Origin: an uncultured Balneola sp.
Lineage (GTDB): Bacteria > Bacteroidota > Rhodothermia > Balneolales > Balneolaceae
Length of the DNA: 32,000 bases
Assembly: GCA_964505215.1 (NCBI GenBank)
Contig: CAZDGU010000001.1
Location: 145,760 to 177,759, forward strand
Direction: 5' to 3'
Below, in pieces: positions 7,117 through 11,959 of this stretch; within the stretch, counting starts at the first letter, position 1, and every line of letters starts with the position of its first letter. The notes under the pieces were generated by a model. The model made no database searches, had not been told where the DNA came from, and saw nothing but the letters and a program-made list of their open reading frames with translations. The position numbers were made by a program, and so were the translations under genes.

Positions 7117-10104
7117 GTGCTAAACCGTTGGAAATCCTCAATATTAACTATATCTGTTGTTATTTTTTGCCTTGGGTTTCCAACTCAAAACCTTAAGGCT
7201 CAAGATACCGACGACGACGCTTTTGAGGTATATCTCGACTTCCGCCATCGCGGTATTATTAATTCGGTAGTTATTTCTTATTACAAAAACGATGAGTTTT
7301 ACCTACCGGTTTCTGAGCTTTTCTCCCTCTTTAATATAGACCATACCGTAAAGGGGCTGGTTATTGACGGCAAGTTTGGTTTAGACAGAATCCCCTACAA
7401 GGTTAACGTACAAAACGGCTACATTACGTTTGGTGATGAACGCTTTCCCCTGCAAGCCGATGATTATATCATCAAAGAAATTGATACGTACCTGCGTGCC
7501 GATGTTTTTTATGAAGCTTTTGATTTAGATTTTTCCATAGACTTCAACAATCTTGCGCTTAATCTGGAAACTGAGCAGGAGCTTCCTGCCGTGGCGCAAG
7601 CACTCCGCCGGCAAAGAAGGCGCCTGGCCGATGCCAACCGGTTTCAGCAAGAACAATATGAGCTGAAATACGACCGTGAACGTCCGTTTTTGGACGGTGG
7701 ATTTGTAGATTATAATCTCTCTGCCAACATTGCCGATAAAAACCAGGTATATAATTTCAACACTAATATTGGGATGCAGGTGTATGGCGGGGATTTACAA
7801 GGCTCCATTTTTGGCAGTTATTCTGAGAGCTTCACCAACTTTTCTACCGATAATCTGCGCTGGCGCTACATGTACCGCGATCAGCCCTGGCTCACTAAAA
7901 TCACCATCGGGCAAACCACTACCGACGGTTTCAGCCGAAATGCATACACCGGAATTCGCCTCTCAAACGAGCCGATTGAGCCGCGCCGCCTTTTTGATGA
8001 ATTTGAAGTACAGGGAAGCACCATTCCACAGTCGGAAGTAGAGCTGTATATGAATAACGCGCTCATAGATTTCCAACAATCTGACGAGCTGGGCAACTAC
8101 CGCTTCCTCACTCCCATTACCTACGGCGCCTCCCAGCTGGATTTAAAAATTTACGGCCCTACCGGCCAAATTATTGAGCGCTCCGAACGTATTCAGGTTC
8201 CCTTTAGCTTTCAACCCGAAGGAATGTTTAATTACACCATTAATGCGGGGCAGCTGGATAATCCTATTTTTGGCCAAACTTCCCGTAGCATGACCGTACA
8301 GGGCAGCGGAGCTTATGGTGTAACCGATTGGCTGACCGCCAAAGCCGGCGTAGAGTATTATGACGACTTTCACGATGACCTTCCTACTTTTACCACCAGC
8401 TTGTCATCACGCATAGCTTCAAACTACATTGTTACGCTCGAGGCGGCTTCAGAAGCGTATTATCGCGGGTTGATTAACGTGATTTATCCCAACTCGGCCA
8501 GCTTTAATTTCGATTATACTCGATTTACCGGCGGCTTTGGCATTTACAATCCATCTAACGATGAAGAACGGCTGGTGGCCAGTATTTTTTATCCTTTTAA
8601 ATTCGGGAATTTGCCGTTTAACATTCGAGCTTCCACATTTTCCAGAATTCGACCTACAAACTCGTCCACTACGCTTCGGTTAGATGCCAACTCGCGCATC
8701 GGAAAGCTGAATGTACGCGTAGGCTACAGCGATCGCTACGCCGGAAAAATTGATCCCTTCAACCCAACTCTGGCTTCTTATGTAGAAACTTCGGCTACCT
8801 ACAATATTTCCAGAAACAGAAATATGCCGGCTTATTTACGCGGAGTCTTTTTGCGGGCACAAATGCGCTATCAGCCCAAGGCTGATCAGGTTGAATCGGC
8901 AGAGATAGTAATTTCCAGAAATGTATTTCAGAAAGGAAGATTTCAGCTTACTTACGGGCGCAATTTCAATCGTAATTTCAACTCATTGCGGTTCAGTCTG
9001 GTTATAGATTTCGATAAAGTACGCTCCAGCACTACCTACAGCAACATTCATAACAACAATAACTTCACCCAAAACCTCCGTGGCTCCATCGGTTACGACA
9101 CCAACTACAACAATATGATATTCACCAGTCGCGATCAGGTTGGGCGTTCCGGAGCGGCTATACAGCTTTTTGTGGATAATAATAACAGCGGAACTTTTGA
9201 TGAAGGCGATGAGGCCATAGAAAGCAATGCCGTTCGCGTACAGCGCTCGGGTGCCACCAGCACCGTTAAAAATGGTGTGCTCTACTACACACAAATGCAG
9301 CCCTATTTTTACTACAATATGGAAATGAATAAAAGCCAAATTAAAAACCCGATGCTGGTTCCGGAGTTCGAGAATTTTGGCATGATTACCGACCCCAACC
9401 GCTTCAAAAAAGTGGAAATACCTTTCTATATGTCCGGAGTGATGGAAGGGCTGGTAGAGCGACAGTTTGAGAATGGAAATAAAAAAGGAGTGGCCGGTTT
9501 GAAGGTGCTCTTATCGAAAAAAGATGGAGACTTCAGTAAGGAAATTCGCACTTTCTCGGACGGTAGTTTTTATGATTATGAAATTCCTCCCGGAAAGTAC
9601 ACCCTTGAGGTGGACGGTTCCCAGCTCGATATTCTGAAAAGTAAGTCGCTGCCGGCCCAAATTGAGTTTGAAGTGAAAGCTATACCTGAAGGAGATTTTA
9701 TTGAAGGGCTCAGCTTTTTACTGGTTCCGGAAGACTTCCAGCCGCCTGCCAAAGATAAAATTGATGAGGTTTCTATGGCAGAAGCCATTAAAAATGATGC
9801 CTCCATCTTAACATATCAAGAAGAGCTTTCGAAGCGTATTGATGAAACACTGCGGCTTATTATTCTGGCGCAAAATGCTTTTTATAACCGGGAAATTAAA
9901 AAAGCTCTAACATTGGTAGAACAATCATTAGAAATTTTTGAAACTGCTCAAGGATATGCTCTAAAAGGTAGTTTATATTACCTTAAGGGCGAGAAAGAAG
10001 AAGCACAAAAATACTGGGACTTAGCCGTTCAATTCAATCCTGATATTTATATTCCTGACATGGAAGTTTTGGATGAAATGATTACAACAGAGCTGTTTGA
10101 CTAA
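7117..10104 (+). CDS. usher-like outer-membrane protein with C-terminal CarboxypepD_reg-like and TPR extensions
   Basis: GTG start and a signal peptide ending LKAQ. The segment SEVELYMNNALIDFQQSDELGNYRFLTPITYGASQLDLKIYGPTGQIIERSERIQVPFS parallels the PapC/FimD motif (v.V.qNG..iy...vp.GpF.i.dl....g.dl.v.v.eadG......vPy). It is long and rich in Tyr/Asn/Arg/Phe, consistent with a barrel. GVAGLKVLLSKKDGDFSKEIRTFSDGSFYDYEIPPGKYTLEV is CarboxypepD_reg-like. The C-terminal roughly 80 aa are TPR-like. Confidence 0.55.
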   Translation: MLNRWKSSILTISVVIFCLGFPTQNLKAQDTDDDAFEVYLDFRHRGIINSVVISYYKNDEFYLPVSELFSLFNIDHTVKGLVIDGKFGLDRIPYKVNVQNGYITFGDERFPLQADDYIIKEIDTYLRADVFYEAFDLDFSIDFNNLALNLETEQELPAVAQALRRQRRRLADANRFQQEQYELKYDRERPFLDGGFVDYNLSANIADKNQVYNFNTNIGMQVYGGDLQGSIFGSYSESFTNFSTDNLRWRYMYRDQPWLTKITIGQTTTDGFSRNAYTGIRLSNEPIEPRRLFDEFEVQGSTIPQSEVELYMNNALIDFQQSDELGNYRFLTPITYGASQLDLKIYGPTGQIIERSERIQVPFSFQPEGMFNYTINAGQLDNPIFGQTSRSMTVQGSGAYGVTDWLTAKAGVEYYDDFHDDLPTFTTSLSSRIASNYIVTLEAASEAYYRGLINVIYPNSASFNFDYTRFTGGFGIYNPSNDEERLVASIFYPFKFGNLPFNIRASTFSRIRPTNSSTTLRLDANSRIGKLNVRVGYSDRYAGKIDPFNPTLASYVETSATYNISRNRNMPAYLRGVFLRAQMRYQPKADQVESAEIVISRNVFQKGRFQLTYGRNFNRNFNSLRFSLVIDFDKVRSSTTYSNIHNNNNFTQNLRGSIGYDTNYNNMIFTSRDQVGRSGAAIQLFVDNNNSGTFDEGDEAIESNAVRVQRSGATSTVKNGVLYYTQMQPYFYYNMEMNKSQIKNPMLVPEFENFGMITDPNRFKKVEIPFYMSGVMEGLVERQFENGNKKGVAGLKVLLSKKDGDFSKEIRTFSDGSFYDYEIPPGKYTLEVDGSQLDILKSKSLPAQIEFEVKAIPEGDFIEGLSFLLVPEDFQPPAKDKIDEVSMAEAIKNDASILTYQEELSKRIDETLRLIILAQNAFYNREIKKALTLVEQSLEIFETAQGYALKGSLYYLKGEKEEAQKYWDLAVQFNPDIYIPDMEVLDEMITTELFD

Positions 10105-11959: not shown

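Follow-up and report, generated by a model that had tools for sequence, protein, structure and literature searches.

The window, i.e., the 32-kb stretch of DNA from an uncultured Balneola sp. analysed here, contains an open reading frame that joins parts of two flagellar proteins, FliF and FliG, within an operon of chaperone-usher type (Table 1). Small secreted fibre-subunit-like proteins, a chaperone candidate and a usher homologue are encoded upstream of the fusion, while a probable lipoprotein with a TPR domain, MotA and MotB are encoded downstream. Nearly all of 48 Balneolaceae species share this order of ten genes, and from the chaperone gene through motB the coding sequences overlap or almost touch.

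Table 1. Features of the locus in window coordinates.
Feature	Position	Strand	Details
Fibre-subunit-like secreted protein 1	2431..2931	+	166 aa; DUF4402-like; syntenic in 43 loci
Fibre-subunit-like secreted protein 2	2931..3581	+	216 aa; DUF4402-like; syntenic in 42 loci
Fibre-subunit-like secreted protein 3	3574..4107	+	177 aa; syntenic in 42 loci
Variable pilin-like subunit	5629..6144	+	171 aa; weak DUF4402, E 0.006
Terminator-like hairpin	6164..6193	+	13-bp stem then T7; directly 3' of pilin-like gene
Periplasmic protein, PapD-like chaperone candidate	6287..7114	+	275 aa; two Ig-like domains; syntenic in 47 loci
Remote outer-membrane usher homologue	7117..10104	+	995 aa; hhalign
C-terminal TPR domain added to usher homologue	9862-10104	+	residues ~916-995
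FliF(RBM3)-TM-FliG fusion protein	10097..11959	+	620 aa
N-terminal hydrophobic segment	10097..10249	+	end ...VNA/Q; AQ-ended hydrophobic stretch aligns in most homologues
FliF RBM3-like periplasmic domain	10277..10714	+	residues 61-206; fold and family profile
Loop MPGLPFLPEEN	10460..10492	+	residues 122-132; joins the two long strands
TM helix	10769..10852	+	residues 225-252; AlphaFold helix
FliG_N-like region	10988..11287	+	residues 298-397; Pfam and model helices 298-390
FliG_M-like region and long M-C helix	11300..11605	+	residues 402-503; Pfam
FliG_C-like domain	11612..11953	+	residues 506-619; Pfam and hhalign
Torque-helix equivalent RPSREQRLIRMEIQQ	11822..11866	+	residues 576-590; alignment with E. 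coli FliG
TPR-domain lipoprotein (probable; LSLGC)	11956..12489	+	177 aa; TPR matches
Flagellar-type MotA	12496..13293	+	265 aa; Pfam MotA_ExbB, E 9e-18
MotB with plug, channel Asp, OmpA-like and SPOR domains	13320..14807	+	495 aa; Pfam

Genes around the fusion and their distribution

The fibre-subunit assignment sits under the Pfam cut-off, with DUF4402 scores of 24.7 bits for protein 1 (cut-off 25.2) and 24.5 bits, just under the cut-off, for protein 2, and no Pfam match for protein 3. Protein 1 carries the C-terminal signature WVGG...PGNYEG.FT.E.DY, and the Gracilimonas tropica orthologue of protein 3 ends in Y.Y.YG..NVG....G.Y.G.I.L.V.Y, an ending shared with other subunits. The variable pilin-like subunit can be aligned with the other subunits and is poorly conserved between species (tblastn match in 1 of 48 loci); in G. 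tropica, which carries the locus (L007), a similar-sized gene occupies its slot. It is probably the major fibre subunit, and the hairpin behind its gene may act as an attenuator that allows an excess of this subunit.

When the chaperone candidate family was compared with seven true fimbrial chaperones by hhalign, the probability was 74.9% (E 2.6e-5, 131 columns), and 7 of 16 members matched Pfam PapD_N weakly; we hold the PapD-like assignment with moderate confidence. The usher family aligned with seven true ushers at 96.6% probability (E 5.9e-10) over 509 columns comprising barrel and plug, and its Pfam Usher matches, just under the cut-off, all fall in the same region; the homology is remote but significant. 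The added C-terminal domain of the usher homologue, with TPR_2 at residues 944-976, is 37% identical to the lipoprotein (E 5e-14), and the two TPR domains are, judged by this similarity, paralogous. The lipoprotein gene is syntenic in about 47 loci.

The best PDB matches of MotA are flagellar MotA/PomA (E 3e-24 to 2e-10), and the equivalents of P173 and P222 are invariant. The R90 equivalent is Lys or Arg in all 19 usher-linked copies and Gly in two others (L049 and L050); that of E98 is Ala or Ser, with a Glu two residues away that most copies conserve and five replace by Gln. MotA identity is 63-70% in nearly all Balneolaceae loci and 44-55% in three outliers. MotB reaches 29.1 bits for Pfam MotB_plug (cut-off 24) and also matches OmpA and SPOR, and its D33 aligns with the channel Asp of E. 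coli MotB, D32.

In two loci of distant Bacteroidota (L051 and L052), small subunits, chaperone-like and usher-like proteins, the fusion, MotA and MotB all occur together, and the core of fusion, MotA and MotB is found among distant Bacteroidota whether the usher is present or not, and also with other partners. Every locus examined has MotA and MotB behind the fusion, even the very distant ones that lack the usher. In a motor-less variant, the usher, an RBM3 protein and the TPR protein are still grouped. The fusion architecture is common to more than 90 further representative clusters, and some distant fusions bear an N-terminal periplasmic LysM domain. The conserved chaperone-usher operon was not part of the preliminary description of this DNA.

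The FliF and FliG parts of the fusion protein

The open reading frame runs from a TTG at 10097 to the stop codon at 11957-11959; the NCBI product starts at ATG 10109 (616 aa), and a start at ATG 10154 yields a canonical signal peptide ending in ...TVNA/Q. It has four parts, i.e., a signal sequence, a periplasmic domain of about 150 residues, one TM helix and a complete FliG, and about 90 full-length homologues with 36-51% identity. The AQ ending of the N-terminal segment recurs in the other secreted proteins of the operon, and the segment is probably a cleaved signal peptide. The modelled TM helix coincides with the one read from the sequence at residues ~233-250, and a hydrophobicity scan placed a TM segment at the same position in homologues. 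We found no published description; many sources label members of the family simply FliG.

The core of the periplasmic domain was modelled by AlphaFold with pLDDT of about 90 in the order helix 62-82, strand 90-112, loop, strand 144-167, helix 172-186 and strand 195-201, with a long beta-hairpin resembling the FliF collar. FliF RBM3/S-ring chains make up the best 18 Foldseek matches in PDB (E 3e-8 to 4e-7), followed by SpoIIIAG (E 4e-4), and both segments previously likened to FliF, residues ~61-100 and ~153-206, lie within the matched domain. A HMMER family profile of the domain reached bona fide FliF at E 1e-5 to 2e-4 for the whole library of 1.84 billion proteins, and a second family profile did so at E 2.5e-13. 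The predicted fold and the profile point specifically to FliF RBM3/collar and to no unrelated fold. Pfam YscJ_FliF_C did not match the fusion protein of the window itself, and its hhalign comparison with E. coli FliF as a single sequence was insignificant; distant family members that also carry FliG_C pass YscJ_FliF_C, one of them (P0223) with FliG_M above its cut-off as well. The link to FliF therefore comes from structure, family profile and these distant members. In the alignment with Vibrio and E. coli FliF, an RGD motif (residues 192-194) coincides with theirs. In the MPGLPFLPEEN loop, P123, G124, L125, P126 and P129 are invariant; the motif PG[LIVMF]P is present in 115 of 139 family representatives and in motor-less forms and absent from true FliF among 13 sequences listed, and the loop is a candidate contact site for the TPR partners. 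RBM1 and RBM2 are missing, so that the fusion has no place for a type III export gate.

The strings described as FliG_N-, FliG_M- and FliG_C-like each lie inside the corresponding Pfam domain, at residues 327-397 (25.1 bits, cut-off 25), 413-485 (33.5 bits, cut-off 25, E 4.8e-8) and 525-615 (35.2 bits, cut-off 23.3, E 1.6e-8). Foldseek matched the model to full-length FliG 3hjl (E 3e-7), and hhalign aligned E. coli FliG residues 111-297 with 93% probability (E 3.4e-7). F317, W320, G328 and D340 are invariant in the FliG_N-like region, and the FliG_M-like region can be aligned with T. maritima and H. pylori FliG. The charged ridge looked for on the FliG_C-like helix was recovered in part: R579, equivalent to E. 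coli FliG R281, is invariant and E587, equivalent to D289, nearly so, but only two of the five classical charged residues are retained. In FliG, R281 and D289 make contact with MotA. R576, P577, E580, Q581 and L583 of the helix are also nearly invariant. The likeness to FliF and FliG is far beyond chance, which confirms what had been observed and supports its interpretation: the fusion is an inner-membrane protein that unites a periplasmic FliF RBM3/collar and a complete cytoplasmic FliG in one chain. The suggestion of a minimal MS-ring/C-ring rotor has to be narrowed. The FliM-binding EHPQR motif is lost except for its Glu (E422) and the locus encodes neither FliM nor FliN, nor a rod or export gate, so the fusion would at most form a ring of FliG and no C-ring.

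Comparison with known systems

With the flagellar rotor-stator core of Salmonella, E. coli and Vibrio (FliF MS-ring with FliG, MotA5B2), the locus shares the RBM3/collar-like fold, the TM helix, FliG N, M and C, the R281/D289 equivalents, a flagellar-type MotA with P173 and P222, and a MotB with plug, channel Asp and OmpA-like domain. It differs in that one polypeptide replaces two, RBM1 and RBM2 are absent, a signal peptide, probably cleaved, stands in place of TM1, the PGLP loop is family-specific, the EHPQR motif is lost, and the chaperone-usher operon that encodes the fusion includes no FliM, FliN, rod, hook or filament genes. Engineered FliF-FliG fusions of Salmonella and Vibrio (FliFG) still assemble rings as a covalent chain (PMC11481574, PMC6079021), which shows that fusing the two does not prevent ring assembly. 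These are laboratory constructs with full-length FliF and all three RBMs inside a flagellum, whereas the fusion described here is natural, shortened and, as had been proposed, outside any flagellar gene cluster, the window containing no other flagellar gene. A natural FliF-FliG fusion as such is already known from Chlamydiaceae, bacteria without a flagellum, in a different build (Bergeron 2016, PMC4768692). That protein of about 330 aa joins a shortened FliF, which keeps RBM2 and one further RBM and misses the SpoIIIAG-like RBM3, to a FliG_M-like region only; its presumed role lies with the injectisome, and a MotAB partner is not described (PMC4768692). The Balneola fusion, in contrast, retains RBM3 and a complete FliG and has MotAB adjacent.

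SpoIIIAG of the sporulation channel shares the ring-building motif with a beta insertion and forms a large oligomeric ring, but has no FliG or stator and acts between mother cell and forespore, and it matches about four orders of magnitude less well than FliF. The concept that proton flow through an inner-membrane complex of the MotAB family acts across the periplasm on an outer-membrane machine recalls GldLM of type IX secretion and gliding, ExbBD-TonB and TolQR-TolA. There the force is borne by the B-like subunit or by a periplasmic arm dedicated to it and no FliG/FliF ring exists, whereas the stator here is of flagellar type and is proposed to act on a FliG ring. The usher homologue, the chaperone candidate, the set of small secreted subunits and the terminator that follows the gene of the putative major subunit are features that the operon has in common with chaperone-usher pili (FimC/FimD, Caf1M/Caf1A, Mrk, Pef). 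It differs from them in the C-terminal TPR extension of the usher homologue and in what goes with this homologue: invariably an RBM3 ring protein and the TPR lipoprotein, joined in most lineages by FliG and MotAB.

A possible rotor and the competing explanations

We hypothesize that proton flow through MotAB drives a rotor resembling the MS-ring and that this rotor is coupled to a chaperone-usher fibre, and we regard the chance that it rotates and is so coupled as about even. In the inner membrane the fusion would most likely assemble as a ring, underlain by a ring of FliG, and MotB could anchor the MotA/MotB complexes to peptidoglycan via its OmpA and SPOR domains. Protons passing through these complexes would make MotA push on the FliG_C torque helix (R579, E587), so that the ring turns or comes under torque. 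In the periplasm, the output is probably received by the invariant MPGLPFLPEEN loop, which lies at the tip of the collar-like hairpin and may contact both paralogous TPR domains, that of the lipoprotein and that of the periplasmic usher C-terminus. By this contact the motor could power, gate or move a fibre built of the four DUF4402-like subunits. Several observations count against the rotor, i.e., the incomplete set of charged FliG residues, Ala/Ser at the MotA E98 position, the YscJ_FliF_C and E. coli FliF comparisons, the moderate chaperone assignment and the subunit scores. No step known in classical chaperone-usher assembly would require a motor, since that pathway needs no energy source in the inner membrane.

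The ring and collar could instead be a static platform, in which MotAB transduces energy via FliG as in ExbBD-TonB or TolQR-TolA and proton-driven conformational strokes open or regulate the usher without continuous rotation. The LysM domain of some fusions, a typically peptidoglycan-binding module on the periplasmic N-terminus, points this way, since a ring bound to peptidoglycan would not be free to rotate, as does the motor-less RBM3 protein still paired with usher and TPR protein, which argues for a MotAB-independent scaffold role of the ring; a rod or other axle protein is not encoded either. However, the stator is of flagellar and not ExbB/TolQ type and is paired with a complete FliG with conserved torque-helix residues, a combination that rotates a ring in every studied case, and we consider a static platform possible but rather unlikely.

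The rotor would also fall if the FliG-like region were merely a regulatory or scaffold domain of ARM/MgtE_N type, a torque-free membrane organiser of pilus assembly, with the neighbouring MotAB used otherwise, e.g., for envelope anchoring via OmpA and SPOR. Pfam MgtE_N does match residues 539-585 just under its cut-off, the NCBIfam FliG equivalog score of 40.9 is far below the cut-off of 226.7, and EHPQR is lost. This is improbable, however, as the three FliG domains stand in canonical order, the model matches full-length FliG, the torque helix with its R281/D289 equivalents is the most conserved stretch of the C-terminal domain, and MotA and MotB, two genes downstream in the window, accompany even distant usher-less fusions. 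It is very improbable that the fusion is left over from a lost flagellum and decaying, or that it is the true FliF/FliG of a flagellum encoded elsewhere, a thought suggested by flagellated Balneolaceae such as Balneola vulgaris and by the frequent FliG annotation. The fusion is intact in 48 species with many invariant residues at the identities given above, lacks the RBM1 and RBM2 that house the export gate, and always neighbours usher, chaperone and subunit genes, never fli, flg or flh genes. It is present in one species described as non-motile, G. tropica, listed without motility (PMC5167729), and its architecture extends to the further clusters.

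The FliF RBM3-FliG fusion and its flagellar-type stator

The window encodes a fusion of FliF RBM3 with FliG that is accompanied by a matching flagellar-type stator and has retained contact residues. Its open reading frame is real, with a TTG start, an 8-nt overlap with the end of the upstream gene and in-frame ATGs at 10109 and 10154; the NCBI product of 616 aa begins at the former, and a start at the latter gives a typical signal peptide. The N-terminus is hydrophobic and ends, like a signal peptidase site, in TVNA followed by Q. Since AQ is present at the aligned position in most fusion homologues and is an ending that recurs in the operon's other secreted proteins (chaperone-like, usher-like and subunit), this segment may, judging by the sequence, be a cleaved signal peptide and not a first TM helix. 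FliF itself has a TM helix on either side of its periplasmic region, and a helix of the FliF TM2 type is present in the fusion at residues 225-252. The preliminary description of a single polypeptide with a FliF(RBM3)-like domain, a TM helix and a full FliG-like region is borne out by the ORF, Pfam, AlphaFold and Foldseek alike.

The ARM-like helices of the cytoplasmic half have the N-M-C architecture of FliG, with Pfam FliG_N (PF14842, residues 327-397, 25.1 bits, cut-off 25), FliG_M (PF14841, residues 413-485, 33.5 bits, cut-off 25) and FliG_C (PF01706, residues 525-615, 35.2 bits, cut-off 23.3) in order. FliG of H. pylori and T. maritima was matched by phmmer in the PDB sequences (E 2.5e-6 to 1e-4), and hhalign aligned the fusion family with E. 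coli FliG at 93% probability (E 3.4e-7). The AlphaFold model of the fusion, made from a 37-sequence alignment, has a mean pLDDT of 75.9 and reaches ~85-93 in the greater part of the FliG region; Foldseek aligned it with structures of full-length FliG at E 3e-7 to 4e-6, with 305-333 columns matched. The match to the NCBIfam FliG equivalog TIGR00207 (E 1.6e-10) reaches 40.9 bits, far below the cut-off of 226.7, thus the FliG part is a divergent FliG and not an orthologue; nor is it a separate polypeptide in a fliF-fliG-fliH context.

In the flagellar motor, R281 and D289 of FliG pair with E98 and R90 of MotA (PMC7564593). According to hhalign, R281 of E. coli FliG corresponds to R579 of the fusion, which is invariant in the family, and D289 to the nearly invariant E587, while K264, D288 and R297 are not kept and are replaced by Ser, Met and Asn, respectively. 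The charged ridge of FliG_C proposed for alignment in the preliminary description is thus preserved at two positions and lost at three, and the stretch R576-P-x-R-E-Q-x-L-x-x-x-E587 is the most conserved of the C-terminal domain. The FliM-binding EHPQR motif is missing: SEHPQ of T. maritima aligns with GESSM, in which only the Glu (E422) is conserved, and the R160 position is occupied by Gly. Neither fliM nor fliN was found in the 32-kb window.

The best PDB matches of MotA are flagellar MotA/PomA (E 3e-24 to 2e-10), with no ExbB or TolQ chains at E <= 1e-3, and its bit score for the NCBIfam MotA equivalog is 104.8 vs the cut-off of 394. Flagellar MotA is characterised by four TM helices, the prolines P173 and P222 and a charged cytoplasmic loop (R90, E98); the equivalents of both prolines are invariant in the family. 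The preliminary description proposed to look in this loop for charges complementary to FliG. At the R90 equivalent, the 19 usher-linked copies have K or R and the usher-less loci L049 and L050 have Gly; the E98 position is Ala or Ser, with a mostly conserved Glu two residues earlier (Gln in five copies). MotB combines a plug (MotB_plug, 29.1 bits, cut-off 24), an OmpA-like peptidoglycan-binding domain (E 2e-15) and a SPOR domain; its SWQVSYLDILT aligns with SWKIAYADFMT of E. coli, with D33 equivalent to the channel Asp D32. At 495 aa, the MotB of the window is unusually long and its SPOR domain is placed after the OmpA-like domain; complete Balneolaceae orthologues have 496-636 aa and MotB of the distant loci ~220 aa.

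In both structure models, the periplasmic part begins with a helix, continues with two long strands joined by a disordered loop, and closes with a second helix and a strand (core pLDDT ~90). This predicted fold is a ring-building motif in which a long hairpin is inserted after the first strand and before the second, the arrangement seen in RBM3 and the collar of FliF. In a Foldseek search of the PDB, the best 18 matches of the periplasmic model were RBM3/S-ring structures of Salmonella and Vibrio FliF (E 3e-8 to 4e-7, target-normalised TM-score ~0.5-0.6), followed by SpoIIIAG at E 4e-4 and then by unrelated folds at E > 0.007. The window fusion alone gave no match to Pfam YscJ_FliF_C (PF08345) at E <= 1. 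A profile of 21 family members, run against 1.84 billion representative proteins, found 164 proteins at E <= 1e-3, among them true FliF with both Pfam YscJ_FliF and YscJ_FliF_C (E 1e-5 to 2e-4). Distant fusions, which also match FliG_C or FliG_M, pass PF08345 with 40.6 and 27.4 bits (cut-off 23.8), and a profile built from them reached FliF at E 2.5e-13, with 7 proteins returned in all. Structure and family profile therefore both identify the RBM3 and beta-collar (YscJ_FliF_C) region. An invariant RGD (residues 192-194) directly precedes the TM helix; it has an aligned counterpart in FliF of Vibrio and E. coli and also occurs in the true FliF matches of the family profile. Compared by hhalign with E. 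coli FliF as a lone sequence, the periplasmic family gave no significant match, though the RGD motif aligned, and the best match in a profile search of PDB sequences was Vibrio FliF at only E 0.75. The periplasmic part has only ~170 residues, equal to a single RBM, and PF01514, the SctJ-homology region with RBM1 and RBM2, has no match in the fusion.

Chaperone-usher-like neighbourhood

The fusion gene lies outside a flagellar gene cluster, as had been supposed beforehand: usher, TPR and motAB genes adjoin it, and the rest of the 32-kb window contains no flagellar genes, the remaining ones being rpoN, aroA, RNase G, a ClpX/HslU-type AAA+ ATPase, ctpA, ftsX and other housekeeping genes. From the gene of the 275-aa protein to motB, the coding sequences overlap or are at most 27 nt apart. 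By tblastn, the gene order is kept in nearly all 48 Balneolaceae loci, with only the pilin-like gene too variable to detect. The usher homologue has a periplasmic TPR extension, and co-inheritance of the genes is strict.

Coordinates of the gene cluster in the window and of features in related loci
Sequence	Feature	Position	Remark
Window	DUF4900 protein	85-1254	directly upstream of cluster
Window	132-aa secreted protein	1273-1671	directly upstream of cluster
Window	Three small secreted proteins	start 2431, 2931, 3574	
Window	Inserted repeat region	4108-5628	between third small protein gene and pilin-like gene
Window	Two direct copies of ~275-nt element	4148-4421, 5157-5428	87-98% identical, 1008 nt apart
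Window	Variable pilin-like gene	start 5629	
Window	Strong terminator-like hairpin	6164-6193	after pilin-like gene
Window	275-aa protein	start 6287	two Ig-like domains
Window	995-aa usher homologue (putative)	start 7117	
Window	Fusion	10097-11959 (+)	
Window	TPR lipoprotein	start 11956	
Window	MotA	start 12496	
Window	MotB	13320-14807	
Window	rpoN (sigma-54)	15250-16761 (-)	converges on cluster end
L007	Two ORFs, DUF4900 and 132-aa proteins	462-3315	Gracilimonas tropica
L049	Fusion to 851-aa GT2 glycosyltransferase	10001-16199	after two MotB genes
L050	Fusion to 612-aa ORF	439-5917	after two MotB genes; cut by contig end
L051	AraC-type response regulator, histidine kinase	9755-11928	directly after motB
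L052	AraC/TPR regulator	644-2044	precedes cluster
L052	AraC-type response regulator, histidine kinase	13728-15898	directly after motB
L054	Usher homologue, LysM-RBM3-TM protein, TPR protein	471-5077	
L055	Usher homologue, LysM-RBM3-TM protein, TPR protein	6-4612	Bacteroidales MAG

By sequence comparison, the 995-aa protein is a remote usher homologue. Several family members have collinear Pfam Usher matches below the cut-off (best 25.8 bits vs 27.1), in which residues ~261-424 fall on profile positions 48-210, and hhalign of the family against seven true ushers (FimD, Caf1A, MrkC, PefC, FedC and two others) gave 96.6% probability and E 5.9e-10 over 509 columns, consistent with the outer-membrane barrel with plug of PF00577; against E. 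coli FimD alone it was negative. The C-terminal 80 residues are a TPR domain with 37% identity (E 5e-14) to that of the lipoprotein. The 275-aa family is a candidate chaperone: its hhalign comparison with seven chaperones of the PapD type reached 74.9% probability (E 2.6e-5, 131 columns) and was negative against E. coli FimC alone, and Pfam PapD_N is weak in it (7/16 members, best E 0.003). In the chaperone-usher pathway, subunits polymerise by donor-strand exchange. The small proteins, as putative subunits, have a common C-terminal signature and matches just below the cut-off to DUF4402, which we take to be linked to spore-coat-U/Csu-type pilins.

Several minor features surround these genes. 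The ~275-nt elements contain G+C-rich hairpins and flank a G+C-richer stretch of ~735 nt; the corresponding space in G. tropica measures only ~145 nt, which suggests that a repeated element was inserted here recently. An RNA gene in the gap (4110-5430) was rejected, as Rfam gave no match. The DUF4900 and 132-aa proteins are syntenic in 26 loci and are preceded in L007 by two ORFs with type IV minor-pilin-like hydrophobic N-termini, and the system may have a link to a second gene set that resembles one for type IV pili. Gracilimonas has longer usher homologues (P0296-P0355, 1164-1549 aa) with a SPOR domain, 55-75% identical to the window protein.

Distant relatives and the proposed mechanism

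A word-indexed search found 91 fusion homologues of 464-635 aa, nearly all of 569-635 aa, and the organism names given for them are all Balneolaceae, Balneolales or 'Bacteroidota'. The 48 genome loci are labelled Balneolaceae, Balneola, Gracilimonas or Aliifodinibius in all but two, one of which is 'Roseivirgaceae'. An RBM3-like domain together with FliG-like regions was present in 93 of the 139 further representatives (50%-identity clusters), five of these 93 also having an N-terminal LysM domain; the other ~46 have the RBM3-like domain only and comprise short complete proteins, a few true FliF and fragments. The complete RBM3-only proteins (250-330 aa) end after the TM helix, and six have LysM. 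The motif PG[LIVMF]P occurs in 115/139 representatives and, among the 13 sequences listed, is present in the short forms without FliG and MotAB and absent from true FliF.

The distant loci, whose taxonomy was assigned from two neighbouring housekeeping proteins, differ in gene content. L051 and L052 contain small proteins, a ~277-aa protein, a ~980-aa usher-like protein, the fusion, MotA, MotB, a response regulator and a histidine kinase; the L051 fusion has LysM, and the RecA of this locus shares 90% identity or more with a RecA labelled Bacteroidota. L049 and L050 have the fusion, MotA and two tandem MotB genes and no usher, and the rotor-stator module may also serve a polysaccharide system. 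In L053, an M23 peptidase and the fusion are followed by two unknown proteins, of which one is a homologue of the TPR lipoprotein, and then by MotA and MotB. In L054 and L055 (Bacteroidales MAG), an usher homologue and a TPR protein accompany a LysM-RBM3-TM protein of 322 aa without FliG, and MotAB are absent. These gene contents indicate that the fusion, MotA and MotB form a portable module and that the RBM3 protein, the TPR protein and the usher constitute a second association, possible without the motor.

We propose that the fusion would assemble into a ring similar to the MS-ring, which in FliF has ~33-34 subunits, and that MotAB anchored to peptidoglycan would rotate this ring by proton flow. 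The collar tip with the invariant MPGLPFLPEEN loop would contact the TPR domains of the lipoprotein and usher, and torque or movement would pass on to the chaperone-usher fibre. To this model as a whole, with its presumed rotation and coupling, we give an even chance; ring formation and MotA-FliG contact have better odds when considered by themselves, and it is very likely that the fusion is functionally linked in some way to the fibre system. Its chief competitor is a ring that does not rotate and transduces energy by conformational strokes, which is favoured by the LysM-bearing fusion variants and the motor-less scaffold form; we consider it less likely. A flagellar relic or a component of a true flagellum is unlikely, as such an origin is rejected by synteny, conservation and the missing RBM1/RBM2, and G. 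tropica carries the locus yet is tabulated as non-motile, Balneola vulgaris being flagellated (PMC5167729). Returning to the rotating ring, we raise tentatively the possibility of a third kind of bacterial ion-driven rotary surface organelle, in which a MotAB-spun FliF/FliG ring is TPR-coupled to a chaperone-usher fibre. If true, this would be an organelle without a type III export apparatus, rod or hook, in which proton-motive force assembles, rotates or moves the fibre.

Relation to known systems and regulatory genes

The flagellar motor is the standard example of a rotary machine, and it has long been asked how a rotor and stator could have arisen ahead of the export apparatus and filament. 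To our knowledge, FliF and FliG are regarded as flagellum-specific rotor proteins and the chaperone-usher pathway is believed to be independent of inner-membrane energy. The widespread and conserved FliF(RBM3)-FliG family, with its own flagellar-type MotAB and genetically tied to a chaperone-usher fibre, offers a concrete, testable answer to the question of a rotor and stator preceding export. The lineage, in which some variants lack the motor and others the usher, might be what survives of the kin of a rotor-stator module older than the flagellum, and not a derivative of the flagellum. Compared with the flagellum, the system is a variant of the rotor-stator core without the type III secretion core, RBM1, RBM2, FliM, FliN and the EHPQR motif, the last five of which it reveals as dispensable rotor parts.

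Engineered FliF-FliG fusions are likewise covalent and assemble rings (PMC11481574, PMC6079021). A natural FliF-FliG fusion of Chlamydiaceae has RBM2 with one further RBM and only a FliG_M-like tail, and stands in an injectisome context with no MotAB partner (PMC4768692), whereas the window fusion has retained RBM3 and a complete FliG in a MotAB and usher context. MotAB and its relatives outside flagella were the subject of a 2025 study, which names FliG once, in the introduction, and describes no stators paired with FliG outside flagella (PMC12505986), and a 2025 survey poses rotor proteins in non-motile species as an open question (PMC12199754). No published description of the fusion family or operon was found in the openly accessible literature. 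The system provides a minimal model for structural work on the stator-rotor contact, and its presence in the culturable Gracilimonas tropica DSM 19535 and Balneola sp. EhC07 makes genetics and cryo-tomography feasible.

As for regulatory genes, rpoN is a neighbour only in the Gracilimonas-like loci L006, L007 and L013 and is therefore probably not part of the system. In L051 and L052, the regulator and kinase genes adjoin the cluster, which suggests that the system is under two-component control in these two loci.
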